Below are positions 26,550-60,829 of a stretch of 64,000 nt of DNA, one piece after another. The position numbers were made by a program, and so were the translations under genes. Origin of the DNA: Candidatus Poribacteria bacterium (GTDB lineage: Bacteria; Poribacteria; WGA-4E; WGA-3G); contig OY730443.1 of assembly GCA_963422705.1 (NCBI GenBank), forward strand, positions 3,169,394-3,233,393, read 5' to 3'. The notes under the pieces are model-generated. The model was not told the origin of the DNA. It did no database searches and saw only the letters and a program-made list of their open reading frames with translations. Numbering within the stretch: position 1 is the first letter of the stretch; each line of letters begins with the position of its first letter.

Positions 26550-26996
26550 GGAGAATTGTAGTAGATGCTGAAAATAAGGGGACATTAGCGTATCAATTTT
26601 GTCGACAGGACGAGCGTCGCCGCAAGGTAACGTATCTGCCTCATCACTTGTTAGGGGGTGATGTACCATGAAAACTTATTCGTATCAATGTAGAGATTCA
26701 TCCAATTGTATTCGGCTTGGCAACTTTCTTGACGATATGTGGCAAGTGGATATGTATTTCCATAAGCGGCAGCGTCAACAGGATAAAGACGGATTATCAT
26801 GCGATGCGCGCACACGTGATTAAGTTGAAGCGGTGCCCCCCGGCATTGGAATGTTTTGCCGAGTCAAGTCCTCTAAGAGGAAATCAAACGTATTTACGCG
26901 GGACATCCGCGTTTTTTCAATAAATCTGGCGGTAACCCCATATCAAACCGCAGTTGCTATGAAACCGAAGCTGACCTTTTAGGGTGTGGCTATCAC
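26550..26996 (+). mobile_element. MITE/PATE-like internal-deletion derivative of the IS200/IS605-like element at 43.7 kb
   Basis: Left part matches that element's left end (LE) and tnpB 5' end (cgtatcaa, then ATGAAAACTTAT...cttgacgatatgtggcaagtg). The junction is at a shared aaacc, followed by a right end (RE) matching accgcagttgctatgaaaccgaagc...ctatcac. Flanked on the left by TTGAC. Confidence 0.6.
26669..26821 (+). pseudogene. tnpB: tnpB 5' fragment (51 codons) inside the MITE-like element
   Basis: MKTYSYQ...LGNFLDDMWQVDMYFHKRQRQQ parallels the N-terminus of TnpB at 43857 (MKTYKYP...IGNQLDDMWQVHVYFHKWQRH). Confidence 0.6.
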
Positions 26997-28638: not shown

Positions 28639-31467
28639 ATGCGTTTTATTGCTGTTATCGTTTTCTTAATTGGGGTCGCGATTGCGATTGGGTACTTCGC
28701 ATATCAAAATCTGGGCGGCTTTGCGTCCACCAGCCTGGTTCGTTGGCTCATCGTTATTTTTGCGGTATTGTTGGGGAGCCTCATTGCGTTCGCAGCTTCA
28801 GTCATCCGATATCGGATTCCGAAAGCGGATGTTGCGCTTATTAGGACGGGGGGCTCCCGGGAAAAAATTCGTGTCACCGGCGGACTCTGGGTAAACACGA
28901 TTATTCATGAAATCAAAGAAGTTTCTCTCAATACCATGCGCATTGAGGTGGTTCGCGAGGGGCCAGAAGCGCTAATCACCTACGACTTCAACCGTGGAGA
29001 TGTTGAAGTCGTTTTTTACCTTAAGGTCGAGCCTGTAGAGGACGGTATCTTACGCGCAGCACAAGCACTCGGCGATAAATCTATGACGCCAGAAACCGTC
29101 CGTGAACTGATAGAACCTAAGCTTGAGGGGGCACTACGCAGTGTTGCCGCCGAAAGTGACATACAAGAGCTCTTGCAGAAACGACAAGAATTCGCTGATA
29201 AAGTACAAGCCACATGTGGCGAAGACCTGGAAGCACAAAATGGGTTGACACTTGAAACTGTCTCCATTATCCGCGTCGATCAGACACCCGTTGAAACATT
29301 GGATGCCGATAACCGTTTTGACGCCGTCGGTATCCGGGAAATTACTGAAATTACAGCCGAGCAGGAACGCGAAAAAACACGCATTGTTCAAGAGAAAGAT
29401 GTAGCAATCGCTCAAATTGAGATGGATGCACGCGTCCGGAAGCTTGAAATCGAACAGGAACAGTCCTGGGCAGAGTCAGATCAGCAGAAGAATATCTCTA
29501 TTTATGCAGCTGAACGGGAAGCCGAGACACTCAAATTTCAGTTTGAGATGGAGCAAGGCGTCCAAGAACGTGAATATGAGATGAAGCAAGAGGTTGAACG
29601 CGCACGCATCACACAGGAACAAGTCGTCCAAGAACGCGAAATTGAGATGAACCGGGATGTTGAAGTCGCCCGCGTCCAACAAGAACAGATTGTCGCTGAA
29701 CGCGAAATTGAGAAAAACCTTATTGTTGAAACGCAACAGATTGAACAATCCAAAGTTGTTCAACTTGCCGAAATTGAGCAGCATCTTATCGTGCAACTGC
29801 AGAAAATTGAGCAGGAACAGAGCATCGCTGTTCGTGATATAGAGAAGGAGTTATTCGTAGAGAAGGCGCGTATTGCGCAAGAAGAGGGTGTGATGCTGCG
29901 TGATATTGAGCGTGATTTACTTGTTCAGACGGAGCGTTTTAGTCAAGAGCAACAGGTTCAGCAGCGTGAGATAGAAAAGAATCTGGTTGTGGAGACAGCC
30001 CAAATCGAGCAGCTTCGGCAAGTAGAACTAGCCGAGATTGCGAAAATGCTAACGGTAGAGATAACGCGCATTGCGCAGCAACAGCAGGTGGAGACGCGCG
30101 ATATAGAGAAGGAGTTATTCGTAGAGAAGGCGCGTATTGCGCAAGAAGAGGGTGTGATGCTGCGTGATATTGAGCGTGATTTACTTGTTCAGACGGAGCG
30201 TTTTAGTCAAGAGCAACAGGTTCAGCAGCGTGAGATAGAAAAGAATCTTGTCGTGGAGACAGCCCAAATCGAGCAGCTTCGGCAAGTGGAACTGGCCGAG
30301 ATTGCGAAAATGCTAACGGTAGAGATAACGCGCATTGCGCAGCAACAGCAGGTGGAGACGCGCGATATAGAGAAGGAGTTATTCGTAGAGAAGGCGCGTA
30401 TTGCGCAAGAAGAGGGTGTGATGCTGCGTGATATTGAGCGTGATTTACTTGTTCAGACGGAGCGCTTTAGTCAAGAGCAACAGGTTCAGCAGCGTGAGAT
30501 AGAAAAGAATCTTGTCGTGGAGACAGCCCAAATCGAGCAGCTTCGGCAAGTGGAACTGGCCGAGATTGCGAAAATGCTAACGGTAGAGATAACGCGCATT
30601 GCGCAGCAACAGCAGGTGGAGACGCGCGATATAGAGAAGGAGTTATTCGTAGAGAAGGCGCGTATTGCGCAAGAAGAGGGTGTGATGCTGCGTGATATTG
30701 AGCGTGATTTACTTGTTCAGACAGAGCGTTTTAGTCAAGAGCAACAGGTTCAGCAGCGTGAGATAGAAAAGAATCTGGTTGTGGAGACAGCCCAAATCGA
30801 GCAGCTTCGGCAAGTGGAACTAGCCGAGATTGCGAAAATGCTAACAGTAGAGCAATCCCGGATTGGCCAGGAATTGCGCGTGGTGTTGACTGATGAGGAT
30901 AGAAAAATCGATGTTGCCAATAAACAGCAGTTGACAGCCCTGGCCGAAAAAGAGCAGCTGGTTGCAGAGGCTGAACGGATGGGTGCCGAAGTAGAGGTTA
31001 CCGCGACTGAACAGCGTGGAGAGGCAGAATGGCAGCGTGAAGTGGCAATCATCGGAGCGGAAGCGCAGGCACAACCAATTGAACGTCTCGCCGACGCGGT
31101 GCTTGCTGAAGCACGCGCCAAAGCACAGGGAGATATGGCAGATTACGAGGCACGAAACGTTGCTGAGCAGCGGGTTCTCGTACAGGAAGCCATCTTAGAA
31201 CTCATTGACGAACTCCCTGATATTTTTGAAGAAATGATGAAACCTGTTGAGAAAATCGACAGCATTAAGATTTTGGATATGGGGAACAATGATGGGCAAC
31301 GCGGTATCACACGTAGCAATATGGGACGTCTCGCAAATGCCTTGCTTGATACCGGCGCAATTTCACCGATGTTAAAGGAATTGTTCAACTTCGCCGATGT
31401 AGATGCGCAACAAATTACGGATAAGATTGCTGAATATCTCGCCGACTTGGTGAATCGCCCCAGTTAA
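28639..31467 (+). CDS. Flotillin/SPFH (band 7, YqiK-like) membrane protein with an expanded coiled-coil repeat region
   Basis: N-terminal TM helix plus SPFH-like segment (LIRTGGSREKIRVTGGLWVNTIIHEIKEVSLNTMRIEV). Long E/Q/R-rich heptad region containing an 88-aa unit repeated about 4 times. Confidence 0.65.
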   Translation: MRFIAVIVFLIGVAIAIGYFAYQNLGGFASTSLVRWLIVIFAVLLGSLIAFAASVIRYRIPKADVALIRTGGSREKIRVTGGLWVNTIIHEIKEVSLNTMRIEVVREGPEALITYDFNRGDVEVVFYLKVEPVEDGILRAAQALGDKSMTPETVRELIEPKLEGALRSVAAESDIQELLQKRQEFADKVQATCGEDLEAQNGLTLETVSIIRVDQTPVETLDADNRFDAVGIREITEITAEQEREKTRIVQEKDVAIAQIEMDARVRKLEIEQEQSWAESDQQKNISIYAAEREAETLKFQFEMEQGVQEREYEMKQEVERARITQEQVVQEREIEMNRDVEVARVQQEQIVAEREIEKNLIVETQQIEQSKVVQLAEIEQHLIVQLQKIEQEQSIAVRDIEKELFVEKARIAQEEGVMLRDIERDLLVQTERFSQEQQVQQREIEKNLVVETAQIEQLRQVELAEIAKMLTVEITRIAQQQQVETRDIEKELFVEKARIAQEEGVMLRDIERDLLVQTERFSQEQQVQQREIEKNLVVETAQIEQLRQVELAEIAKMLTVEITRIAQQQQVETRDIEKELFVEKARIAQEEGVMLRDIERDLLVQTERFSQEQQVQQREIEKNLVVETAQIEQLRQVELAEIAKMLTVEITRIAQQQQVETRDIEKELFVEKARIAQEEGVMLRDIERDLLVQTERFSQEQQVQQREIEKNLVVETAQIEQLRQVELAEIAKMLTVEQSRIGQELRVVLTDEDRKIDVANKQQLTALAEKEQLVAEAERMGAEVEVTATEQRGEAEWQREVAIIGAEAQAQPIERLADAVLAEARAKAQGDMADYEARNVAEQRVLVQEAILELIDELPDIFEEMMKPVEKIDSIKILDMGNNDGQRGITRSNMGRLANALLDTGAISPMLKELFNFADVDAQQITDKIAEYLADLVNRPS
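29836..30855 (+). repeat. 264-bp near-perfect tandem repeat x about 3.9 inside the flotillin-like gene
   Basis: Unit starts at 29836, 30100, 30364 and 30628 (gatatagagaaggagttattcgtagagaaggcgcg...), with only a few SNPs between copies. Confidence 0.9.
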
Positions 31468-43613: not shown

Positions 43614-44182
43614 TTCTATGAATGGTTCCTTTATTTTATCTGTTTTCAGGGTTTACGGGCATTCGTTTGTTTTGCCCAATCCTTTAGGTTTGGGATATAA
43701 GCCCGCTAAGGGCCTAATCCTTGTGAAATAAATTTGACTTTTCTGCTAAAAATGTGATATCATATTCGTATCAAGTTGGCAGACATGAACAGCGTTACCA
43801 CTTGGTAGCGTGTCTGCCTACCCACTAGGGGTTTAAGACTTGAAACTTGATAGTCCATGAAAACCTATAAATACCCGCTTGGGAAACAATCTAATACGAT
43901 GCGCATTGGAAATCAGCTTGACGATATGTGGCAGGTGCATGTGTATTTCCATAAGTGGCAGCGTCACCGGTATAAATATGGTTTGCCGTATGCCAACTAC
44001 GCTGCAATGTGTCAACATGCATGCATATTGAAACGAACCACACATCCACATTGGAAGTTGTTGCCAAGCCAAGCCATCCAAGCAGAGCTAGAACGAATTG
44101 ATAATGCGTATCAAAGGTTCTTTAATAAACTGGGAGGTAACCCCCATATCAAACCTCGCCATAAGTTTAAGTCTATCACGCT

Positions 44183-44288
44183 GAAACAAACTGGATTTAA
44201 ACTGACTGATAACCGTATTACACTCACTTTTCGTCGAAACAAACTGGATTTAAACTGACTGATAACCGTATTACACTCACTTTTCGTC
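44183..44288 (+). repeat. 53-bp perfect tandem duplication (gaaacaaactggatttaaactgactgataaccgtattacactcacttttcgtc x2) that frameshifts tnpB
   Basis: Copy 1 is 44183..44235 and copy 2 is 44236..44288. 53 is not a multiple of 3, and a TAA lies just after the junction. Confidence 0.9.
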
Positions 44289-44668
44289 AGTGGGATAAAG
44301 GGAAGTGGCGATTTGATAAAGTGCCAACTACGTTTCATAAGCACCGCCAGTGGCATGGGACTCTCCGTCGTATCACAATCAAATGTGATAATTGTGGCGA
44401 CTATTGGCTTTACATCATAACGGATGACACCGATTTTAAACCGCTGCCGACAACAGGTAAAAGCGTTGGGGCAGACTTCGGAATGAAAGACGCGTACTTG
44501 ACACTTAGCACGGGTGAGAAGATACAACACCCCGAACCTTTGAAACAGTCCTTGAACAAACTTCGGACTCTCAATAAAGCGTTTTCTCGTAAAGTTAAAG
44601 GTTCTGGCAACTGGTGGCGATGTGTCAGGCAACTTGCACGTCTGTATCGGAAAATTAGCAACCACCGC

Positions 44669-44691
44669 GAAACGGCGGTTTCGCCCTACGC
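44669..44691 (+). repeat. 23-nt hairpin mini-repeat gaaacggcggtttcgccctacgc, copy 1, in-frame inside tnpB-1 (encodes ..ETAVSPYA..)
   Basis: Identical 23-mer found four times in the window. Stem gaaac/gtttc with loop ggcgg. Absent from the aligned position of the second TnpB. Confidence 0.85.
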
Positions 44692-44949
44692 TAAAGATTT
44701 TCACTGGCAACTGGCAAGTGAACTTTGTAAAAAGTTTTCTTGCTTTGTCCTTGAGACGTTGAACCTTGACGGCATGAAACGACTGTGGGGGCGTAAAGTC
44801 TCGGACCTCGCCTTCTACCAGTTCGTTGAGATATTGGAATATAAGTGCAGTAAACATAAACGTATGAGGAAACAAATCGGACAATGGACGCCGACAACGA
44901 AGCCGTGTTCAGATTGTGGGTATCACAACAAAGAACTAAGACTTTCAGA

Positions 44950-45171
44950 TAGGCAGTGGACATGCCCCGACTGTGGTCCACACCACGACAGAGACATCAA
45001 CGCTGCGATAAACATTTTGCGGGCAGGGATAGCCGTCACTTGACGATATGCCTGTAGAAAACTACAGGGAAATGCCCGTAGGTGGAGCGACAGTAAGACG
45101 GTGGACACTTTGAGAAAACCGCAGTTGCTATGAAACCGAAGCCCCACGCTTTAGCGTGTGGGTGCTATCAC
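44950..45171 (+). ncRNA. Candidate TnpB-associated reRNA/omegaRNA scaffold (3' end of tnpB plus RE)
   Basis: By analogy with IS200/IS605 TnpB systems, the guide RNA derives from the tnpB 3' end through the RE boundary (…ctatcac at 45171). The 5' boundary is a guess. Confidence 0.3.
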
Positions 45172-45600
45172 GAAAGTATAATATAGAATGTCCGATGTGT
45201 CCAGAATGATTTTGTCCGAATGAGTTATCGTAGGTTTTAAAAGGAGTGATACCGTTCCCAATGAGAACCTTGCAGGCGCGCTTGCCAAGTGCGCAGTTTG
45301 AGACAGCTCCGGTGAAGATAAATGTCGCGGTATTTTTCTACTACACTGTAATTCTCGACTAGAAAGTCAATAACCCCCGACTTCAGTCGGGGGCTTGTGC
45401 GAAGCGTATACCAAACGTTCACTCCACAAGTTAAACGATTTTCTACAGTAAAATATCGCTTTATCTGGGCGTGGTGGCCTAAACAATGTTTCGGATACTC
45501 CCCTCGTCCGATTCACGCTACGATATTGCGCTCTGGAAGGGGCAATATACAACCCGTAAGGGAGATTACAAACGATGTTTGTTCCGGTGACGAGTCAAAC
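45172..45600 (+). ncRNA. Candidate omegaRNA for the downstream IsrB-like gene (about 400-nt ORF-poor structured region)
   Basis: Lies immediately 5' of, and overlapping, the IsrB-like start, as in IscB/IsrB loci. Contains a strong hairpin cccccgac-ttca-gtcggggg (45374..45393). No convincing protein ORF. Confidence 0.35.
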
Positions 45601-46375
45601 AGGTGCCTTGTTGATGCCGACGCGTGCGAACAAGGCGGGCATGCTGATTAAGAAAGGTTTCGCCACGCCCTATTGGTCAAATGGGATATTCTGTATCCGG
45701 CTTAACTATGCTACCGAAGCCGCATACACACAAGATATCGTCGTCGGTGTAGAACCCGGTAGCAAGAAAGAAGGCTTTACCGTCACATCAGCATCTCATA
45801 CCTATTTGAATGTTCAGGCAGACGCTCACGTCGGTGTCGGTAAGAAAGTGGCGAAGCGTCGAGAGTTGCGTAGAAGTCGGCGTTCACGAAAGTGTCCGAA
45901 TCGCAAGAATAGAACCAACCGTCTTGCGAATAGAGCGCGTATCCCCGCAGGCACACGTGCGAGATGGGACTGGAAACTTCGGATATTGGATTGGTTGTCC
46001 AAACTGTATCCGGTTAGCCACGTTTGTGTTGAGGATATTAAGGCACGGACAATAGAACGTGCGAAGAAGTGGAACACCTCCTTTAGTCCGCTTCAAGTTG
46101 GTAAACAGTGGTTCTATCGCGAAATCCGTAAACGGTGGGAACTGTTCACTTTACAAGGGTGGGAGACGAAAGAAATACGAGAGAGGTTAGGTCTCAAGAA
46201 GTCTTCAAAGAAACTATCGGAACCCTTTGATGCGCATTGCGTAGATTCTTGGTGTCTGGCACATCATACCGTAGGCGGTTTGGATATACCCGATAACACG
46301 TCGCTTCCGAAACGGCGGTTTCGCCCTACGCTTGTGTATCTCACCGATACCGATAAAACGCAGAGAGTTGCATAG
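45575..46375 (+). CDS. Compact IsrB-like (HNH-less IscB) OMEGA nuclease, 266 aa
   Basis: N-terminal PLMP-like domain (GALLMPTRANKAGMLIKKGFATPYW). RuvC-I IVVGVEPGSKKEGFTV. Arg-rich bridge helix KRRELRRSRRSRKCPNRKNRTNR. RuvC-II VSHVCVEDIKA. RuvC-III FDAHCVDSWCLAHH. No CxxC/HNH insert between RuvC-II and RuvC-III. Confidence 0.6.
   Translation: MFVPVTSQTGALLMPTRANKAGMLIKKGFATPYWSNGIFCIRLNYATEAAYTQDIVVGVEPGSKKEGFTVTSASHTYLNVQADAHVGVGKKVAKRRELRRSRRSRKCPNRKNRTNRLANRARIPAGTRARWDWKLRILDWLSKLYPVSHVCVEDIKARTIERAKKWNTSFSPLQVGKQWFYREIRKRWELFTLQGWETKEIRERLGLKKSSKKLSEPFDAHCVDSWCLAHHTVGGLDIPDNTSLPKRRFRPTLVYLTDTDKTQRVA
46309..46331 (+). repeat. Same 23-nt hairpin mini-repeat, copy 2, in-frame near the 3' end of the IsrB-like gene (encodes ..KRRFRPTL..)
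   Basis: Exact 23-mer match. Confidence 0.85.
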
Positions 46376-46485: not shown

Positions 46486-46508
46486 GAAACGGCGGTTTCG
46501 CCCTACGC
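46486..46508 (+). repeat. Same 23-nt hairpin mini-repeat, copy 3, intergenic downstream of the IsrB-like gene
   Basis: Exact 23-mer match. Confidence 0.85.
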
Positions 46509-46936
46509 TCTTGCTGGCGTTAACGCAAATGGTTTGTTTTCGATATACAGTATGGGAAACAAACGATTAACCACAGGGGCGAAGCGTTCTGATTTTCGCG
46601 TGCTAACACGCCTCAACTTTTACTATAGGAGCGGTGTTTCCTCCCCTGAATGAATTCAGGGGGTTCCACACCGAAGAAAATGATGAATCGAAATCATAAT
46701 ACCTCCCGGTAGGAGGAGTCTTCTCTTTGATTTCCGCGTCGTCCAGATTCCTGCCGTCTCGAGAGCGTCACGACATGTCGAAAACGAAATGGGCTAAACT
46801 ACGCTGTATTAACACTTGACATTTTTGAAATTTTGTAGTATCTTTATTAGGAGTTTTCAACAAACCTGCAAAAAGATGTGCTCGTTCAATCGCATGGGGA
46901 GTGCTCTAATTAGAACATAAGGAGAGGAACGAAACT

Positions 46937-51276: not shown

Positions 51277-52416
51277 ATGGGCACTATGACAGCTTACGAA
51301 CGAAACGCGAACGGACAAACTACCCTTGTAAAGCCCCACGTGAAAAAAGTTCTTGTCGCAATGAGTGGGGGCGTAGATAGTTCTGTCACCGCCGCTATGA
51401 TGGTGGCAGCAGGGCACGATGTTATCGGCATCACCATGCGCCTCGGTACACCCGATACAATTGAGGTGGAACCAGAACGCCCTAATTGCTGCTCGCTTGA
51501 AGGAATTGAGGACGCTCGCCGCGTCGCGACGCAATTGGGGATTCCCTTCTACGGCGTTAACTACGAGGATGTTTTTCGTGAACAGATTATTGACTACTTC
51601 GTCCAAGAGTATCTCGCCGCGCGGACTCCGAGTCCCTGCATGGTGTGTAATCGCAAACTGAAGTTCGGTAAACTCCTCAATCTGGCGGATTCATTAGCAT
51701 GTGACTTTATCGCCACTGGGCACTATGCGCGGATTGAACGCCACCCGGAAACCGGGCATGCTATGTTGCGAAAAGCCCGTGACGGGAGTAAGGACCAGTC
51801 CTATTTCCTCGCTGCACTCACGCAGGAACAACTCTCGCGTGCATTAATGCCTCTCGGCGAATACACGAAAAACGAAGTCCGCGCACTCGCCCAAAAGTAT
51901 CAATTGCGAACCGCTGATAAAATTGAGAGTCAAGAACTCTGCTTCGTTGCCGATAACAACTATCGACGTTTCCTACAAGATAGAGTGTCTGATAAAATTG
52001 AGGGTGGGGATATTGTGGATAAGGACGGTAACGTCCTTGGAAAGCATCAAGGGGTACCGTTTTATACCGTTGGGCAACGGCGTGGCTTGGGCATCGCCGC
52101 CGCAAAACCGCTCTACGTTACGCAACTCGACGCTACAGAGAATCTGCTCATCGTCGGTGAATCAGATGAGCTCTTGGAGGATACGATGCACGTTGAACGC
52201 CTCAATTTAATCTCTATGGAGAAATTGATGGTGCCTATTCGGGCGAACGTCAAAATCCGTTCGCGTGATGACGGGGGGCTCGCGACGATACACCCGCTCA
52301 GCGAGACGGAAGCCGAGGTAAAGTTTGACGCGCCTCGCCGAGCAATTACACCCGGGCAAGCAACCGTGTTTTACAATGGCGAATATGTCATCGGTGGCGG
52401 CTGGATTAAAGCGTAA
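51277..52416 (+). CDS. mnmA: tRNA-specific 2-thiouridylase MnmA
   Basis: PP-loop VLVAMSGGVDSSV. Catalytic Cys context (CCSLEG…, ELCFV). Confidence 0.9.
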   Translation: MGTMTAYERNANGQTTLVKPHVKKVLVAMSGGVDSSVTAAMMVAAGHDVIGITMRLGTPDTIEVEPERPNCCSLEGIEDARRVATQLGIPFYGVNYEDVFREQIIDYFVQEYLAARTPSPCMVCNRKLKFGKLLNLADSLACDFIATGHYARIERHPETGHAMLRKARDGSKDQSYFLAALTQEQLSRALMPLGEYTKNEVRALAQKYQLRTADKIESQELCFVADNNYRRFLQDRVSDKIEGGDIVDKDGNVLGKHQGVPFYTVGQRRGLGIAAAKPLYVTQLDATENLLIVGESDELLEDTMHVERLNLISMEKLMVPIRANVKIRSRDDGGLATIHPLSETEAEVKFDAPRRAITPGQATVFYNGEYVIGGGWIKA

Positions 52417-52535
52417 GGACAAAGCTGCAGAAATCCCGGAGCCCTTTACCCCAGAAAGCTTTAAAGCTCCCCCGTCAAATCCCCATGCTTTAGCTTTCGG
52501 GATGTAGACGGCGAAGTTCCTGATAGAACATATAG

Positions 52536-52564
52536 TTGACAATCTAATCATAATGTGGTATAAT
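52536..52564 (+). promoter_or_regulatory. Consensus sigma70 promoter for tnpA formed at the IS left junction
   Basis: TTGACA (52536..52541), exactly 17 nt, then TATAAT (52559..52564). The TTGAC is the candidate target pentamer that also flanks the other IS LE. Confidence 0.55.
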
Positions 52565-52672
52565 ATACGATACACGATAATAGAAAGGTAAGATATTATA
52601 CCTCTCAAAATCGCGAATAAGAAACGTAATGACAAAACAAGCAACAAGACACTCTCTAGTTGTCAATATCAC

Positions 52673-53041
52673 GTGATTTGGTGTACCAAGTATCGTCGTA
52701 AGGTTTTGGATACACAGATACAAGGACGCCTGAAACACCTCATACGAGAAAAACAGGACGCGTCTGAATATCAAATCTGTGAGGGTGAAACTCACCCTGA
52801 ACCTGTCCATTTGCTAATAGAAATACCGCCAATACATGCTATTGATAAAATCGTTGGCAAAATCAAAGGTTATACCGCGGCAAGCATGTTGCTTGCTACC
52901 TTTAAAGTTTTGCGAGAAGAATATCCGTGCCTGAAAAGTCGTTTGCCGTCTTTATGGACACGTTCAAAGTTTGTCAGTTCCTGTGGTGGCGTAACGCTCC
53001 AAGTCATCAAGGACTATATTGAAGCTCAAAGTGGACAATGA
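52673..53041 (+). CDS. tnpA: IS200/IS605 HUH (Y1) transposase TnpA
   Basis: HVIWCTKYRRKVL…HLLIEIPP… motif pattern of IS200 TnpA. Homology continues upstream to about 52625 (NDKTSNKTLSSCQYHV) with no in-frame ATG, and the ATG at 52629 is in the +1 frame. Confidence 0.8.
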   Translation: MIWCTKYRRKVLDTQIQGRLKHLIREKQDASEYQICEGETHPEPVHLLIEIPPIHAIDKIVGKIKGYTAASMLLATFKVLREEYPCLKSRLPSLWTRSKFVSSCGGVTLQVIKDYIEAQSGQ

Positions 53042-54268
53042 GAAAAGCCAGCAAGTTCAAACTTCAAAATCAATCGAACATCGTCAAAATCGGCAATATG
53101 CTTGACGATATGTGGCAGATACACCAGCAATTCATGCTTTTACAGCGTAGGTTTTAAGGTGATGATAAGTTGCATGAGAAATCTCCGACGAGATTATTAA
53201 GGGATTGTCAAAAACAGCAGAAGCTCAACCGACTAAGCACGACGAAAAATCGCATGTTCGGCTTTCAACCTGCCCGCATCTCGCATCAACAAACATATTG
53301 TGAAACTCAAGAAGCGCACAAAACCACATTGGGCAGACTTGCCGAGTCAAGTTGTGCAAGACGTTGTTCTGCGATATGGCAAATCACAAGACGCATTTTT
53401 CCAAAACATAGAAGAACGCAAAGCCGGTAAGACAAGACGTAAAGTCGGTAAACCGAAAATCAAACCGAGACACAAATACACCTCTATGACTTTCACACAA
53501 AGCGTAGGGCGAAACCGCCGTTTCGCGGGCTACACACTTGAAAAAAATCGTATCAAAATCAACGGTATAGATACGTGGTTCTCCTTCCACAAACACCGTG
53601 AAATCAACGGGACAATCAAGACGATAACACTCAAACGGGACAGGTGCGGTGATTATTGGATATGCTTTTCGTGCGCGAATGTTGACGATTCCGAACCGAA
53701 ACTCAAGACGGGTAAGAGCGCAGGGTTTGATTACGGAAACAAAACATTCCTTACAAGCGACGAAGGCAACAAGATAGAATCTCCGCAGTTTTTCAAACAC
53801 TCCCTGAAAACGTTGCGATGCCTGAGCAAAGCCCTGAGTCGTAAAGTCAAAGGTTCTAACAACTATTATCGTGCGTGTCGTGCTTTGGCGAGGCACCACA
53901 GAAAAGTCGCGCGCCAAAGAGAAGAGTGGCAGTGGAAACTTGCCACCGAACTTTGCACGGCGTTTGATATACTCTGTTTTGAAACACTGAATCTTGACGG
54001 TATGAAACGCCTTTGGGGACGCAAAGTCTCTGAACACGCAGAGGATCAGTTCATACAGATATTGGAACAGAAGTGTGCAAAGCATGGTAAAAAACTTGAG
54101 CGAATCAGTCAGTGGACACCTACAACAAAACCATGCAGTGATTGCGGATACCATAATCAAGAACTCTCTCTTTCTGATAGACAGTGGACTTGTCCCGACT
54201 GTGGTTCTCATCACGATAGAGACGTCAACGCTGCTATCAATATCAAACGGGCAGGCTTGGCTGCCTAA
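53038..54268 (+). pseudogene. tnpB: TnpB gene interrupted near codon 40 by a foreign about 130-nt segment (N-terminal fragment 53038..53160, remainder 53300..54268)
   Basis: N-terminal fragment MRKASKFKLQNQSNIVKIGNMLDDMWQIHQQ… then a stop. The remainder resumes at the equivalent of about residue 65 (KLKKRTKPHW…) and runs to CSDCGYHNQELSLSDRQWTCPDCGSHHDRDVNAAINI. Confidence 0.75.
53502..53524 (-). repeat. Same 23-nt hairpin mini-repeat, copy 4 (reverse orientation), in-frame inside tnpB-2 (encodes ..GRNRRFAG..)
   Basis: Exact reverse-complement 23-mer match. Absent from the aligned position of TnpB-1. Confidence 0.85.
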
Positions 54269-54488
54269 AGTGGAGCGACAATGAGACGGGGTTTCTCTCA
54301 GAGAAAAGCGCCGTCGCTACGAAGCACAAGCCCCTACCTTCAGGGAGTGGGTACCTATGCTGCTATCAATATCAAACGGGCAGGCTTGGCTGCCTAAAGT
54401 GGAGCGACAATGAGACGGGGTTTCTCTCAGAGAAAAGCGCCGTCGCTACGAAGCACAAGCCCCTACCTTCAGGGAGTGGGTACCTATG
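54231..54488 (+). repeat. 129-bp perfect tandem duplication spanning the last 12 codons of tnpB-2 plus the RE
   Basis: Copy 1 is 54231..54359 and copy 2 is 54360..54488. Each begins ctgctatcaatatcaaacgggcaggcttggctgcctaaagtggagcgacaatgagacgg… and ends …gggtacctatg. Confidence 0.9.
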
Positions 54489-54726
54489 ACAGCGACGTTT
54501 AAAGCCTATTTTGTGAAATTCGGCCTCGCCTATCGCATTCGGATGGATACGATGATTGCCCTGTTTATTTTTTTATGGCAATTTACCGATTGATAGCGGC
54601 GCAAGCGCGACGGCTCTGGCTGCACTGCGCGACGGGTGTCTTAAAGTTCGACGAACGGGATTTGGCCAGTACCTCATTTATTCTCCGGTAGTAAATCAGT
54701 CATGTTTAAAATCGACTACCCTCTCT

Positions 54727-55659
54727 ATGAAACCGAAACTCATCTGCCTCCTTGGCCCAACAGCCGTCGGAAAAACGGAAATAGCCATTGAATTGGCTAA
54801 TCACCTCAATGCCGAGATTGTGTCTGTCGATTCTCGGCAAATCTATCGGCACCTAGACATCGGCACAGCGAAACCGACACACGAGCAACAGAACGCAGTC
54901 CCACACCACCTCATCGATTGTGTCGATATCGCGGAGCCGTTTTCCGCCGCTGACTATCAGAGGTTGGCTGATACAGCAATTGTGGATATTCAAAAGAGAG
55001 GTAAGATATCTCTGCTGGTGGGCGGTGCGGGACTCTATTTTCGTGCGATTGTGGATGGGTTGTTTCAAGGACCGGGGGCAGATACCGCAATTCGGGAACG
55101 ACTTCAACGCGAAGCGGCGCATGCCGGGCCCGAATTGCTCCATAACCGGCTCTGCAGTTGTGACGCGGATGCTGCAGCACGTATTCACCCGAACAACGTA
55201 GTGCGAGTCATCCGGGCTCTAGAAATCTACGAACTCACCGGTACTCCGATTTCCCAACTGCAGCAACAGTGGAATCATCAGCAAATTGACAAACCGCCGC
55301 GATACCCGTTTACTGCTTTTTGCCTCAGCATGTCACGAGCTTACCTCTACCAGCGCATTGAACAGCGCGTTGATTTGATGATGACGAACGGACTCATCGA
55401 AGAAGTTAAGGGGGTACTGACGCGCGGATATCCGAGGGATTCTATCGCGCTGCAGAGTTTCGGATACAGAGAACTGATTGCCTATCTTGAACAGGAATGC
55501 CCGTTAAACGAAGCGATTGTAAAGGTGAAGCAGAACACTCGACGCTTTGCGAAACGCCAATTGACATGGTTCCGCAAAGATTCGCGCCTCGAATGGGTAG
55601 AGCGTGGAACGATTACAGAGGTTGTCGCTCACCTATTAGCGCGGGCTGAGCATATCTAA
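54727..55659 (+). CDS. miaA: tRNA dimethylallyltransferase MiaA
   Basis: P-loop LLGPTAVGKTEIAIELA and VSVDSRQIYRHLDIGTAKP. The ORF is open from 54556, but the Met at 54727 (MKPKLICLLGP) fits MiaA N-termini. Confidence 0.85.
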   Translation: MKPKLICLLGPTAVGKTEIAIELANHLNAEIVSVDSRQIYRHLDIGTAKPTHEQQNAVPHHLIDCVDIAEPFSAADYQRLADTAIVDIQKRGKISLLVGGAGLYFRAIVDGLFQGPGADTAIRERLQREAAHAGPELLHNRLCSCDADAAARIHPNNVVRVIRALEIYELTGTPISQLQQQWNHQQIDKPPRYPFTAFCLSMSRAYLYQRIEQRVDLMMTNGLIEEVKGVLTRGYPRDSIALQSFGYRELIAYLEQECPLNEAIVKVKQNTRRFAKRQLTWFRKDSRLEWVERGTITEVVAHLLARAEHI

Positions 55660-55760
55660 TTCTCCATTCATCTGATGCGGTACATACAACTTCATGAGGA
55701 GATTCAGCGCATCACACGCACCGCAGGAAACCGCGCTAAGCGAACAGCGTGTTTCTTTGT

Positions 55761-58700
55761 TCACGCTTCCGTCAACTCAGACGGTAACCCCTCAATAATT
55801 TCAGTCGACGCAACGCTCACATAAACCAGGCGTTTTATCACGGTAATAAGTTCATCCGGTTCTGCAAACCACTCATTTGCGTCATTGATGATGCCACTCT
55901 CCTTGTCCCGCGTCACCTTGTACCTATCAATTAACCACTCCAGGGGCGTCCGTCCGTTAACCACATACCGATGCGCCTCCGAAGGGATACCCGATACGCG
56001 CGTCTCCTCATTGATGATAAGCGTCTCTTTGCTCACCTTATCCGAAAAACGCATCGACTTCGAACTCAACTGAAAATTCCCCGTCGGGGCATCCACGGAA
56101 AGGGGGTACGCCTCACACGTCTCATAATTCAGGTGTAGGCGCGCTAGCGCCGCACCCGCATCCGAAAACGCGCTGAAATCAGGCGCAAACGGAATGCGCG
56201 GCAACATCTTGGTGACATCATTCGCGAACTTTTCACGATACACCGACGAATGCAATACGCCGTAAACATAATCGAAAATCGCATCCTTCGTGATGCCGTC
56301 ATCCCGGTAATGCGCACGGAACGCCGCCAGCGCCGTATCCGATATGTTGTCAAGACGCCGGCCACTGATTGGGTATTCCCACCGCGGAAAGCATTGGCAC
56401 CCATTGTTTAAACCGCATTCCGGCATCGTATCCGTGATAAGCGCGGAAAACGGCTTTTTGGAACCGATACCCGGCACACATATCACCCGGTTTTCACTCG
56501 ACAAGGGAGGAAACATCCTGTCCATCCAGTGTTTACTCTGTGCGAGCGTATAATCCGCGTAATAATTCGTGGGCACAAACGGGCGATAGCTCACCTTTCG
56601 AAGGTATTCTGCTTTAAAGTCAACCCTTTTCTTTTGTTCGAGTCTCTTTTTCAGCGCTGCTCCCCACTTAATATTCTGTCTTGCGTTGTGCCGGTGTACC
56701 ACCTCATCCACAGTGAGTTCAGGATTTGCCTCAAGTTCAGCAATTGCTGCGCGGTACTCTTTCGTCATGCGGCGGGCGTTGTCGAGGCATGCGTGTCGTG
56801 AGAAGTTGTGGAGGTAGGCGTCCCTACCCGTTGCATACCCGCGTGAATATAACTTAAATATCGCATCGTCCGCCTTGCCCACCTTTGTCTCCTTGGTGCC
56901 CATCGGGTAAAACCGTGCAAACGCATCGCTCCGCTGGTTAACCCAATCGTGATGAGCATTCGGCGTAATTGTCTGCCAATCGCGAACCCCTTTGATGGAG
57001 CCAGCATCCCGCAACGCCGTTAGCTTCTCCTCGCGCGTGAGGTAATCCCCGATATCGCGGTATCGGATTTCACACCTTTTCGTCGTTTTCAGTGCGCTAA
57101 ACTTCTGCTGTTTTTGGCAATCCGTTGATAATCTCGTCGGAGATGCTTTCGTCGTGCTTAGTCGGTTAAGCTTCTGCTGTTTTTGGCAATCCGTTGATAA
57201 TCTCGTCGGAGATGCTTTCGTCGTGCTTAGTCGGTTAAGCTTCTGCTGTTTTTGGCAATCCGTTGATAATCTCGTCGGAGATGCTTTCGTCGTGCTTAGT
57301 CGGTTAAGCTTCTGCTGTTTTTGGCAATCCGTTGATAATCTCGTCGGAGATTTCTCATGTTTTTGTCGTGCTAAGCGATGGGGGTTTTTTACCAAGATGG
57401 TGATGGCAACCGGGGCGCGGGAACCGCTGCCGAAAGCATTTCCACCTTCCGCACGTCGCCGTTCTCCAGAGGTCTCGCATCCCCTCGAAGGTGTAGCACG
57501 TAGATAGAACTGAATTCGGAGGCGAGACATGCCCGGAGCCCCGCATCGGCGTTCCCATCAACCCACGAACCGTTGGTAACGAAGGCGATAACCCCCTCTT
57601 CGCCAATTCTGTCGCTTGCCCACCGGAGTGCCAGTTTGTAGGTATCGTAGAGACTATTCTTATTGGTTACTGTCGATGCCGCGGCATAGGTGTCCCGGAT
57701 GCGTTTTTCAAGCGCCGGATAGTGCACGTTAGGGTTGTCATTGGCAGCACTCTTCTGCCCCACGGACCACGGTGGGTTACCGACGATGACACGGATACGC
57801 CGTTCCTGTTGATTCTCGGTGCGTTCGTTGTTATCCATCAGCCAGAGCAGGGGTTCTGTCTCTCTGTCCGGAATTGGTGTTGTGTTGAGCGTGAAAGTAT
57901 CGGTGAGGGCGATGCCGTTGAACGGTTGTTTCTCAAGTCCCGTCTGCGCACCCATGGACGCAGCCCCTTCAGGGCGCCGGCTGCGGAAGGCTTCGGCGAT
58001 ATTGATGGCGGCGATGTAATAAGCGAGGAGTACGATTTCGTTGGCGTGTAGTTCCTCCCGATATTTCCGTTCCACGTCCGCGGGCGCGATGAGTTCAGAT
58101 TGCAGCAGGCGCGCCAGAAAGGTGCCAACGCCGGCGAACGGTTCTAGGACATGAACACCTTCATCGGAGAGGCTTCGTCCGAATTCATCGGTGAGCACGT
58201 CGTCGGCGCTTTTCAAAATGAAGTCGACGATGTCCACCGGCGTGTAGACGATACCGAGTCGTTCCGCCTCTTGTTTCAGCGCCGTGGCGAAAAATTTCTC
58301 GTAGAGTTCCAACAGCACGCGCTGTTTCCCCGCGCTGTTATCGATGCCGCGGGCGCGCATGCGGACGCTGTCGTAAAAGCCTTCCAAGTCCCGCGTCTCA
58401 TCTAAGAGTCCGAATTCGGCGAAATCGGCCCGGAGCGTGTCCAGCGCTATCGCCACCGGGTTGCTAGAGGCGAATACGTCATTCTCAAAGAGTGCGTCGA
58501 AAACGGGATTTGTGATGATATGCTGTGCCATCATATCGATGGCGTCGCCGCGAGTGATAGCGTCGTTTATCGCGCTTTTGAGTTCGGCATGGAATGCGTC
58601 AAACCATTCTTGCAGCGCCGTGTTTGCTGGATGTCGCAGTAATCCCTCAATGCGTGCGACGACGCGCAAGAAAATATCGGCGACGTCCTTCGCCCAGCTC

Positions 58701-60829
58701 TCCCAATATTTCCTATCGCCGCACTGTTCCACGATTTGCGCGAAGATAGCGTCCGCGGGGATATCCAGCGGCAACGTCAGCTGTGAGGAAAACGCCGCAT
58801 CGCCGTTAAACTCGCCCTTAAATTCGCCCTCAAAGATGATGCGCTGGGTGGGCGTCGTGTTGATATCGATGCTGTTGATTTCCGCGTTGAGTCTATCGTC
58901 GTGTGAACGGAGCGCGCGGAGCACATTCCACACAGATTTGAAGCGTTCGGTGTCATTGAGGATTTTGCCCGGTTCGGCGCCCTCCGGTATCGCGACAGGC
59001 AGGATAATGTACCCATAAGTCTTCCCCGGCGATTTGCGCATCACGCGTCCTACCGCCTGCACGATATCGACGTATGAGTTCCGCGGCGTCATGAAAAGCA
59101 CCGCGTCGAGGGCAGGGACGTCGATACCTTCGGAGAGACACCGGGCGTTGGAGAGGATGCGGCAGACGTCATCGCCACCACCTTTCAACCATTCAATCCG
59201 TTTTTTTCGTAAGAGCGCATTATCTTTCCCGTCAACGTGTTCGGTTTGGCACTCAAACCGCGCTATGCTTTGCGTGTCGGACAGCTGCTGTCGTGCGGTG
59301 TCGATAACACCGTTCCAATGTTTGACAAGGCTTTTCGACGCGGCGATGGTATTGGAGAAAGCGATGGCACGCGTCAACGGCTGCCTATCGGTATCCGCTT
59401 TTCTTTCAGGGTTTTGGAGCGCCCGCCAGCACCCCACAATTTTTGTCGCGTCGTTAATGTTAATCTCCCCGCCACCCGCGGCGATGTATTTCTGCAGTAC
59501 GGGGCCCACCCCTTGCTCCGACATCGCGAGCACAACTACCTTGTAGTCAGAGAGTAAGTCCTGCTCAACCGCGCGCGAGAAGGGCAGCCGGTGAAATTCT
59601 GCCCCGTAGGTAGCCGCATCGTCCATCGAATAAACGTCTCTCTCATGTCGCGCGGCCTTCGCTTTGGCCCCGGCGGTATAGAGGCGGGATGTCGCCGTCA
59701 TGTAGAGGCGTCTCTTCGCGTGAATGCGCGCCGCATCGTGGATGAGCACGAACGGCGAGGTGGTATCGTCCGGGGCTTCGACACCCGTGGTGCGGTGCGC
59801 TTCATCACAAAGCACGATATCAAACGGCGGCGCCCCCTCTTTTTGCGCGGTTTCCACAATCGGCAGCGACTGATACGTGCAGAAAACCACCCGCATATTA
59901 TCGGCATCCGGTTTCTGTAGTGCCGCGGAGATGTCGCCCACAGCTGTCGTCACAGGGAGTTCGAGTTCGAGGAGGGATGCATCTTCAGCGGTTTTGCCCG
60001 CCTTTGTATCAGAGCAGATACCGATGTATCGGTGCGGTATCGCCTGCTGCTCCGCCCATTCGCGCATCGCTTGCGAAAAGAGCCCAATAGACGGCACAAG
60101 ATAGAGCACGCGCCCGCCGACACCGGCGAGATGTTCGGCGATGCGGAGTGCCGTGAAGGTTTTCCCCGTGCCGCACGCCATCAGCAGTTTACCACGCGCA
60201 GCGGTTTTGAACCCGTGAACCACATCGTCAAACGCCTCCCGCTGATGCGTCCGGAGGCGGAACGTCTCGTGTCGATACGCGAGCTGTTCAGGCGCTTGCC
60301 GACTGAGTTCCGGCCAGGTTACCGGGCGGCTGGCGAGTTCCGCGGCGCTGATGCGTTGGCATGCCGGGCGCAGCCCATCCAGTGTTTTACGCACATTCGC
60401 GCTCCAGGTATCGCTCGTATCCACGAAGATACGCGCGGTAAAAGGCTCCCGCGCCGACGCGGCGATAAAGGTGTCGACAACAGCCTTCGTGATACGCGTA
60501 TTTTCCGCATAACATTTGCATTGGATGGCGCAGTAGCCACCGGCGCGCTCTTCGGCGACAATATCGATACCGGTATCAACCGCGTCAAACTCCGGACGGC
60601 GTTCCGCCCATTCCCCCCACAGATAGACAGCGGCGAAGCGTTTTTTGTAGAAAGCGTCTTCGCGAAGATAGCTTTGTATCAACCGCTCAAACAGTCTCCC
60701 CTTTTCGTATTCGCTATCCGCATGCTCACGAATGTAAGTGAGCGCCCTGTCGAACCCGTTATCCGTTTCCGCCGTTTCGGTTCCCAATTCGAGATAAGCT
60801 TGTGTCACTTCTGACATATCGGTTTCCAA
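55761..60829 (-). CDS. Type ISP restriction-modification enzyme (LlaGI/LlaBIII-like), apparently frameshifted at about 57472 and carrying a 4 x 23-aa repeat insertion
   Basis: Mrr-like PD-(D/E)xK FDAVDTGIDIVAEE…IQCKCY. SF2 ATPase CGTGKT and DEAH. gamma-class N6-adenine MTase IVGNPPW. A 1-nt correction restores the conserved LRGDARTSGERRRAEGGNAFGSGSRAPVAITILVKNP…IRYRDIGDYLTREEKL and the C-terminal TRD. Confidence 0.8.
57081..57365 (-). repeat. 69-bp perfect tandem repeat x about 4 (in-frame, encodes ASPTRLSTDCQKQQKLNRLSTTK x4) inside the Type ISP gene
   Basis: Unit starts at 57102, 57171, 57240 and 57309 (cttctgctgtttttggcaatccgttgataatctcgtcggagatgctttcgtcgtgcttagtcggttaag). A about 78-nt module about 92% identical is present once at 53170..53250 inside tnpB-2. 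Confidence 0.9.

Follow-up and report, generated by a model that had tools for sequence, protein, structure and literature searches.

A leader-related 75-nt sequence in a Type ISP restriction-modification gene and a neighboring tnpB gene of Candidatus Poribacteria

How does nearly the same short sequence come to lie, in frame, within two unrelated genes of one bacterial chromosome? The question is raised by 64,000 nt of a Candidatus Poribacteria genome (contig OY730443.1, positions 3,169,394 to 3,233,393; hereafter the window), in which a gene for a Type ISP restriction-modification (R-M) enzyme carries a tandem array, and tnpB-2, the tnpB gene of a nearby insertion sequence (IS) of the IS200/IS605 family, carries a single copy of what is almost the same sequence (hereafter the module). 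The original prediction, made from the sequence of the window, offered three explanations: a small mobile cassette, a recombination event, or copy-number variation of a linker in the R-M enzyme. Recombination comes closest to what we found, whereas the cassette and the functional linker are unsupported. We give an even chance to a history in which the module is a passive sequence, derived from a gene leader, that was copied into tnpB and, locally, into the R-M gene, and was then amplified by slippage.

A 75-nt sequence shared by two genes

The array had been predicted to share a module of about 78 nt with tnpB-2 at about 92% identity. The array unit is in fact 69 nt long and the shared stretch 75 nt, of which 71 positions (95%) are identical (Table 1); the four differences are T/C, G/C, T/C and C/T. 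As predicted, the tnpB-2 copy lies in sense orientation in its host, as the array does in the R-M gene, so that the two copies, which are 4 kb apart, are inverted relative to each other on the chromosome. Both are read in a common frame, HEKSPTRL(S/L)(T/R)DCQKQQKLNRLSTTK. The in-frame lengths (69 and 93 nt for the array unit and the tnpB-2 insertion, respectively) and the shared frame would each arise by accident about one time in three.

Two independent sites are known in the window, in which no further copy was found, plus one more IS copy elsewhere in the genome, that of the protein P0001. The exact pattern TCTCCGACGAGATTATNAANGGATTG had no match in 185,579 species genomes, the JGI metagenomes or IMG/VR; likewise, a pattern of the module tail was absent from metagenome contigs and a gapped core pattern from viral contigs. 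Among 5.8 billion proteins, P0001 alone matched the module peptides of the three open frames. Across 610 kb of DNA from other Poribacteria, the only match was to a gene leader that is described below.

Both module copies are insertions, judging from alignments with related genes. Their composition was compared with that of their hosts: the GC content is 44% for the module, 45% for the whole 306-nt insert in the R-M gene and 44% for the IS, against 56% for the R-M gene. Within the R-M gene, no 306-nt window falls below 48% GC and only 3.3% of 75-nt windows are as low as the module. The module is thus compositionally foreign to the R-M gene.

The array in the Type ISP gene

The R-M gene encodes, on a single polypeptide, the nuclease, helicase, coupler, N6-adenine methyltransferase (MTase) and C-terminal specificity regions of a Type ISP enzyme (Pfam: Mrr_cat_2, ResIII, Helicase_C, ISP_coupler, N6_Mtase/Eco57I, Type_ISP_C), broken by one frameshift, and it can be aligned with LlaGI and LlaBIII through to the C-terminus. 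Translation and Tandem Repeats Finder (57098-57351, period 69, 3.7 copies, 99% identity) confirm the predicted array between ...ILVKNP and the target-recognition domain (TRD), which here begins with CEIRYRDIGDYL. Each unit comprises 23 codons on the minus strand, in the sense orientation of the gene, and the linker between the two domains is thereby 102 residues long, versus ~4 in LlaGI.

We sought whether the array belongs to the native enzyme, using the 120 best homologs of the C-terminal part of the R-M protein, 87 of which span the junction. None of the 87 has the module or the array, as the comparison with orthologs proposed by the original prediction would require of an insertion. A linker of six residues, with the consensus N-A-T/A-H-D/E-G, joins ...ILVKNP to CxIxYxDIG in 83 of them; its H is present in 70 and its D/E in 72 of these 83. 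The remaining four have an unrelated 17-residue linker (IKFPPDKGDKGGSKHEG). The R-M homologs that bear source names, and all relatives of the IS, are from Candidatus Poribacteria, which are sponge symbionts.

The array opens with a short leader (CATGAGAAA), which occurs once in the R-M gene and is common to the tnpB copy and to the cupin leader of relatives (CATAGTAA). Its CATGAG codons (H-E) fall on the conserved H-D/E of the native linker. The three following units (u1-u3) are identical, as would fit the recent expansion that had been proposed. The prediction of four identical 23-residue units holds for these three only: the fourth (u4) shares the 43-nt core, whereas its 26-nt tail matches that of u1-u3 in register at 17 of 26 positions. 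Because merely 31 of 200,000 shuffles reach this score, u4 is taken as an old homologous copy. On the other side of the array lies R0 (CATCGCTTAGCACGACAAAAA), 13 of 15 nucleotides of which match the module tail (76 of 5000 shuffles score equally); it may be native linker or an old partial copy of the module. Removal of exactly 4 x 69 nt leaves ...HE-R-C..., which is plausible as the native linker; R is found at that position in 2 of 83 orthologs.

The gene is split by a 1-nt frameshift near 57472 into two open reading frames (ORFs; 57389-60829 and 55761-57530). At 57470-57475 the window reads AGACC where orthologs (...HLRGNARTSGERRRAEGGN...) imply AGAACC, a loss of 1 nt; as this site is outside a homopolymer, the change is probably a real pseudogenizing mutation. 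The frameshift is located ~90 nt ahead of the array; the upstream ORF ends at a stop codon (57389-57391) just short of it.

Insertion between the MTase and the TRD is seen elsewhere. Four orthologs (P0023, P0034, P0044 and P0067) have another insertion, of 11 residues (IKFPPDKGDKGGSK...), at exactly the same linker, apparently a hotspot at which insertions are tolerated.

The insertion in tnpB-2

The tnpB-2 gene belongs to a decayed IS200/IS605 copy (IS copy 2) whose ORFs contain the Pfam domains Y1_Tnp, OrfB_IS605 and Cas12f1-like_TNB and whose two ends are recognizable at the outer coordinates given in Table 1. The module had been thought to replace about 25 codons of tnpB-2. DNA comparison with relatives shows instead a clean insertion of 93 nt (X) with exact junctions (CGTAGGTTTTA before and TCGCATGTTCGG after the insert) and no tnpB bases deleted. 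X is made up of 16 nt (AGGTGATGATAAGTTG), the 75-nt module and AA. None of the 80 intact IS relatives fetched from other Poribacteria genomes has it, although nearly all of them match over 1110 nt.

X opens with a new TAA stop codon, and it also holds a Shine-Dalgarno (SD)-like AGGTGA followed by a TTG start. This TTG is the start used for P0001, the second module-bearing tnpB product of the same genome (beginning MHEKSPTRLLRDCQKQQKLNRLSTTKNRLFGKTL...). The genome also encodes an intact tnpB paralog without X (P0002; ...LLQRRFYRLFGKTL...). P0001, P0002 and the proteins of the window were taken, from exact-sequence protein look-ups, as belonging to one chromosome of 4,001,648 bp. Compared with its closest intact relative (L002), which served as the reference for lesions, IS copy 2 has a 6-nt deletion, a 24-nt insertion in tnpA, X, one extra nucleotide at 53262, a second 24-nt insertion, and a perfect duplication of 129 nt (two copies) at the right end. 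The frame of tnpB-2 is thus shifted 13 nt past X.

The right-end duplication (54230-54488) is in tandem and spans the last tnpB-2 codons, an ωRNA-like scaffold and the right end of the IS; its first copy is hence followed by the 3' coding sequence of tnpB itself. A tandem array also lies directly 3' of tnpB in the relative L011 (4336-4556).

A homologous leader upstream of a cupin gene in relatives

A homolog of the module is found in relatives between a MazG gene and a cupin gene. In L063 (OX638351.1), CATAGTAATCTGAGATTATCAATTGCCAAAAACAGCAG lies directly after TATAAT and ~120 nt upstream of a gene for a dimethylsulfoniopropionate-lyase-like cupin; it was first found through a 17-mer plus 10-mer match to the module. 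Positions 1-48 of the module align to this leader with two small gaps, and none of 3000 shuffles scores equally. L092 and L093 keep this leader at the orthologous place between MazG and the cupin gene, and L083 has a more diverged form of it there. Its orthologous conservation in four contigs indicates that it is resident and vertically inherited there, not inserted, and this points to a MazG-cupin-type leader as the likely ultimate source of the module. Relative to the leader of relatives, both copies in the window share a CCGAC and an ACGG insertion and a 27-nt tail. Neither a MazG-cupin locus nor any other leader-like sequence was found in the 64-kb window.

The MazG-cupin leader contains a small palindrome (TAATCTGAGATTA), which is possibly an operator. 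A separate motif ending in a -10-like box (TAGGTAGCAACTTRRGTTATWATA) is present in L023, L037, L038, L048 (four copies) and L063 (two copies); the window has none.

Comparison with known element classes

The two copies were compared with several classes of short repeated or mobile sequences. A miniature inverted-repeat transposable element is contradicted by the lack of terminal inverted repeats, the ends of X (AGGTGATG.../...CGACGAAAAA) and of the module (CATGAGAAA.../...CACGACGAAA) not being complementary, and by the lack of a target-site duplication at TTTTA^X^TCGCATG in comparison with 14 relatives; the GCATG direct repeat around X is native tnpB sequence. A repeat finder gave no inverted repeat within the module beyond a 6-bp stem, and the single-strand DNA folds of both copies, on both strands, are not significant (z from -1.3 to +0.4). 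The module also lacks the GTAG/CTAC tag and the significant palindrome of a repetitive extragenic palindromic (REP) sequence associated with REP-associated tyrosine transposases (RAYTs). Of the properties of a Rickettsia palindromic element (RPE), the in-frame lengths are present, whereas the palindrome and the spread over many genes are not: the host families are two, both of selfish genes and both broken.

A template repeat/variable repeat pair of a diversity-generating retroelement was rejected because the mismatches are not adenine-specific; Pfam detected no reverse-transcriptase domain in six ORFs (51277-52416, 52673-53041, 53300-54268, 54556-55659 and the pair of R-M ORFs within 55761-60829). 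For a shufflon-type inversion, the second arm lies in a tnpB pseudogene, not in an alternative specificity cassette, and no invertase was seen among the scanned neighbor ORFs. Searches of Rfam returned nothing relevant at E<=1 in 52000-58000 of the window or in 1700-2500 of L063. A promoter and terminator scan of the module yielded no promoter and no recognizable -35/-10 pair, and comparison by eye with ωRNA guides and IS ends gave no match to the module.

Origin of the two insertions

In the history that we favor, the module would descend from an AT-richer, non-coding, promoter-proximal leader of the MazG-cupin type and would have no function of its own. Codon 40 of tnpB may have received a copy of the leader, as X, in one IS200/IS605 lineage, where its stop codon and new SD/TTG start would truncate TnpB; the lineage bearing X now counts at least two chromosomal copies. 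The short surface linker between the MTase and the TRD, which tolerates insertions, would have received a part of 69-75 nt, most likely by a local template switch or gene-conversion-type repair between the neighboring IS and R-M gene, with the joining point at the CATGAG microhomology to the native His-Glu codons. Three perfect units beside one older unit could then be the product of an amplification of a 69-nt segment by slipped-strand mispairing or unequal recombination. The 64-kb window contains four long tandem duplications (nearly perfect, with a period of at least 40 nt), among them the 53-nt one in tnpB-1 and the 129-nt one at the end of tnpB-2; IS-flanking DNA of other Poribacteria (loci L002-L081) has three in 543 kb, a frequency about 10 times lower.

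CATGAG belongs both to the leader homology and to the conserved native H-E codons, as a microhomology junction would look. That the two sites are 4 kb apart and inverted in a 4-Mb chromosome argues for local copying rather than for two random insertions. A transfer from the IS to the R-M gene is slightly favored over the reverse, because X is the longer copy, the homology of the R-M copy starts exactly at CATGAG, and removal of the four units leaves a plausible linker. No function is indicated for the module, since the array is downstream of a frameshift and a stop codon, X truncates TnpB, and tnpB-2 is frameshifted further.

Several observations weigh against this history. The tail of u4 is ~35% diverged despite the identical core, and the tail-like R0 lies upstream; the history of the R-M locus is therefore older or more complex than one transfer and one expansion. 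With the leader as outgroup, two of the four differences show the ancestral base in the R-M copy, and one possibly does so in the tnpB copy. For the final 27 nt of the module, no significant counterpart exists in the 3' part of the leader, nor does the start of X (16 nt) significantly match the -10 region of the leader (p ~0.38). The DNA-level copy count covers the 64-kb window, and the source locus is presumed. Furthermore, REP-like 24-mers have entered the same IS genes (see below); an enzyme-driven route for short insertions exists in this genome and conceivably served the module too.

The same leader could instead have been the template twice, in two independent patches from its resident locus, the IS and the R-M gene having exchanged nothing directly. 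Such a scheme accounts for two derived insertions with a resident homolog in relatives, for their different extents (X being longer at the 5' end), and for the ancestral bases that each copy retains. It needs, however, two events with a common end point at GACGAAA and with targets 4 kb from each other, a proximity that would be coincidental because the MazG-cupin locus is outside the window. The derived indels and 27-nt tail common to both copies also speak against it, though they could be features of the leader of this genome itself. Overall we regard two separate patches as unlikely. A small, non-autonomous, RPE-like mobile cassette that struck tnpB and the R-M gene independently and in frame is less probable still. 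The discrete extent of 75 nt, the common 5' end (CATGAG) in tnpB, the R-M gene and the cupin leader of relatives, insert lengths that are both multiples of three in one frame, and two diverged tail versions (u1-u3 and u4), as in a repeat family, speak for a cassette; and the 24-nt REP-like insertions in the same IS genes demonstrate that short elements are mobilized in this genome, for which reason the cassette is kept as a small possibility. Yet it would have to lack terminal inverted repeats, a target-site duplication, a GTAG tag and a significant fold, and it would be known from only two independent sites 4 kb apart, with no match in genome, metagenome and viral collections or in the 610 kb of other Poribacteria DNA. 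The tnpB insert, moreover, has 16 extra nucleotides that are absent from the R-M copy, and the homologous leader, orthologous in four contigs, is resident rather than inserted.

A functional device would be either a Type ISP linker of variable copy number or a pair of 75-nt inverted repeats that drives a reversible inversion of 4 kb, disconnecting the TRD and fusing the N-terminal part of the R-M protein to the TnpB body. RecA could act on the inverted arms (75 nt, 95% identical, same frame) to invert the 4 kb between them; in a copy of the P0001 type, module and TnpB body share one frame, so that both products of inversion would be in-frame fusions; X supplies an SD and a TTG start; and the linker site tolerates insertions in other orthologs. 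Nothing suggests that the inversion is used. Frameshifts precede the array in the R-M gene and follow closely on X in tnpB-2, no alternative TRD cassette and no invertase were found in the Pfam-scanned ORFs from 51277 to 60829, and the arrangement is seen only in this genome. A device of either kind is thus very unlikely. A lineage-specific, hairpin-poor, leader-derived cassette of ~75 nt that enters nuclease genes in frame, together with a reversible 4-kb inversion that uncouples the TRD, seems to us a long shot; if true, cassette and inversion would amount to an RPE-like phenomenon outside Rickettsia. Finally, a native Type ISP linker with an assembly-chimeric tnpB copy, the possibility by which the original prediction could have failed, is scarcely credible: the repeat is missing from every junction-spanning ortholog, 4 of the 75 positions are not the same at the two loci, and P0001 stands for another module-bearing tnpB, annotated independently at a different place on that chromosome. 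The flanks are matched at 100% by short-read Logan contigs of run ERR11641160, which are too short to span the array. Copying of a passive leader sequence into tnpB, and locally into the R-M gene, therefore remains the reading that we prefer.

REP-like 24-mers and other repeats in the window

A 24-mer (AGCGTAGGGCGAAACCGCCGTTTC), composed of GTAG and the palindrome GGCG-AAAC-CGCC, occurs in four identical copies in the window (Table 1), three of which lie directly 5' of GCGG. Two copies are in tnpB genes and two are in or near an ORF that resembles, by eye, IscB/IsrB. Searched for in the 610 kb of DNA from other Poribacteria, the 24-mer gave no match. A second GTAG-tagged palindrome of 24 nt (reverse complement AAGGTAGCAAGCAACATGCTTGCC; 52879-52902) lies in frame in a conserved region of tnpA, to which it adds ASMLLATF; five of the six TnpA variants of this genome have it, and the relative L002 does not. 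Both 24-mers fit the GTAG-tagged REP class as outlined in PMC3733652 and PMC2817692, and short-element insertion is active in this genome.

Other repeats are found in the same DNA. A perfect tandem duplication of 53 nt (two copies, 44183-44288) shifts the frame of tnpB-1 (~43858-45040), whose identity to tnpB-2 is 55%. A 942-residue ORF (28639-31467) contains 3.9 copies of a 264-nt repeat (29836-30852, 98% identity) with an underlying periodicity of 66 nt. A third tnpB-related remnant (26671-26971) consists of an N-terminal fragment (26671-26775) and, at 26945-26971, a 27-nt exact match to 45116-45142, in the ωRNA-like region just downstream of the tnpB-1 stop.

Table 1. Locations of the module copies, their host genes, the related leader and the 24-mers (window coordinates unless a locus is named)
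Feature	Location	Strand	Remarks
Type ISP R-M gene (Mrr nuclease, superfamily 2 (SF2) helicase, coupler, N6-MTase, TRD)	55761..60829	-	
Whole extra linker of Type ISP gene	57075..57380	-	306 nt (102 codons) vs 6 codons in orthologs
R0	57360..57380	-	native linker or old partial module copy
Array leader CATGAGAAA	57351..57359	-	single occurrence in R-M gene
Units u1-u3	57144..57350	-	three identical 69-nt copies
Unit u4	57075..57143	-	43-nt core as in u1-u3; 26-nt tail diverged
Stretch homologous to tnpB copy	57285..57359	-	75 nt; array leader + u1 to GACGAAA
Decayed IS200/IS605 copy 2	52460..54487	+	tnpA, tnpB N-terminus, X, tnpB body
tnpA	52673-53041	+	5'-truncated, 122 aa vs 147 aa in full-length TnpA variants of this genome
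tnpB-2 N-terminus	53038-53154	+	
X	53157..53249	+	93-nt (31-codon) in-frame insertion at TTA^TCG, codon 40
Module copy within X	53173..53247	+	75 nt
tnpB-2 body	53249-54268	+	+1 nt insertion at 53262
24-mer AGCGTAGGGCGAAACCGCCGTTTC	44669-44692	-	in tnpB-1, in frame (8 codons)
24-mer AGCGTAGGGCGAAACCGCCGTTTC	46309-46332	-	inside ORF 45575-46375
24-mer AGCGTAGGGCGAAACCGCCGTTTC	46486-46509	-	just downstream of ORF 45575-46375
24-mer AGCGTAGGGCGAAACCGCCGTTTC	53501-53524	+	in tnpB-2, in frame (8 codons)
Conserved leader after TATAAT, MazG-cupin intergenic	L063 1932-1985	-	
Conserved leader after TATAAT, MazG-cupin intergenic	L092 413-558		
Conserved leader after TATAAT, MazG-cupin intergenic	L093 1085-1230		
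Conserved leader after TATAAT, MazG-cupin intergenic	L083 2858-3000		

Discussion

If the favored history is right, its general importance is limited; it would be a well-resolved case of non-coding sequence patched into coding regions and then amplified. Large insertions are tolerated in the linker between the MTase and the TRD of Type ISP enzymes, where two unrelated ones are now known, and the case adds to the impression of a sponge-symbiont genome whose selfish genes are unusually prone to insertion and duplication. Should many chromosomal copies with identical ends exist, they would define a new miniature element that inserts in frame. The 24-nt GTAG-tagged elements are the more promising lead, on REP-like mobilization into IS200/IS605, TnpB and IscB genes.

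The number of 12-bp repeats in hsdS distinguishes EcoR124I from EcoR124II and sets the length of the spacer in the recognition site. The module array is comparable in being tandem, in frame and between domains of an R-M protein, and its copy number could likewise shift by slippage. However, the hsdS repeat is native and its gene intact, whereas the module is foreign to the MTase-TRD linker that it occupies, and its host gene is frameshifted. The frameshift ~90 nt upstream, with the upstream ORF stopping before the array, makes a copy-number-variable functional linker unlikely.

Putative mobile promoters, or promoter propagation in prokaryotes, were reportedly described by Matus-Garcia, Nijveen and van Passel in Nucleic Acids Research (NAR) in 2012. 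The present case is similar in that a resident homolog lies directly after TATAAT upstream of a gene and that copies occur at unrelated loci near transposase genes. It differs in that the copies are inside coding sequence, have no -35/-10 pair and are upstream of no gene.

RPEs are palindromic repeats of ~150 bp that are found in frame in dozens of protein-coding genes (PMC10969869). The module is likewise in frame in unrelated genes, and its position in the R-M protein is surface-exposed and permissive; unlike RPEs, it is non-palindromic, its two independent sites are 4 kb apart, and both hosts are pseudogenes. REP elements, as outlined in PMC2817692 and PMC3733652, are mobilized by Y1 transposases of the RAYT/TnpA-REP type and include a GTAG-tagged class. 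The genome studied here similarly combines short discrete insertions with an abundance of IS200/IS605 Y1 transposases, whereas the 75-nt module itself has neither the GTAG/CTAC tag nor a significant palindrome. Lacking these, as well as terminal inverted repeats, a target duplication, a significant fold and copies in public collections, the module does not have the appearance of the small mobile cassette that had been suggested.

Fork stalling and template switching (FoSTeS) and microhomology-mediated break-induced replication (MMBIR) are microhomology-mediated template switches that give rise to templated insertions during replication and repair. The history of the R-M junction is more complex than a single switch of this kind, and a copying mechanism is here something that we infer. 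What the two insertions have in common with FoSTeS/MMBIR products is a nearby, inverted source, a possible microhomology of 6 nt (CATGAG) at one junction and 16 nt of "filler" at another.

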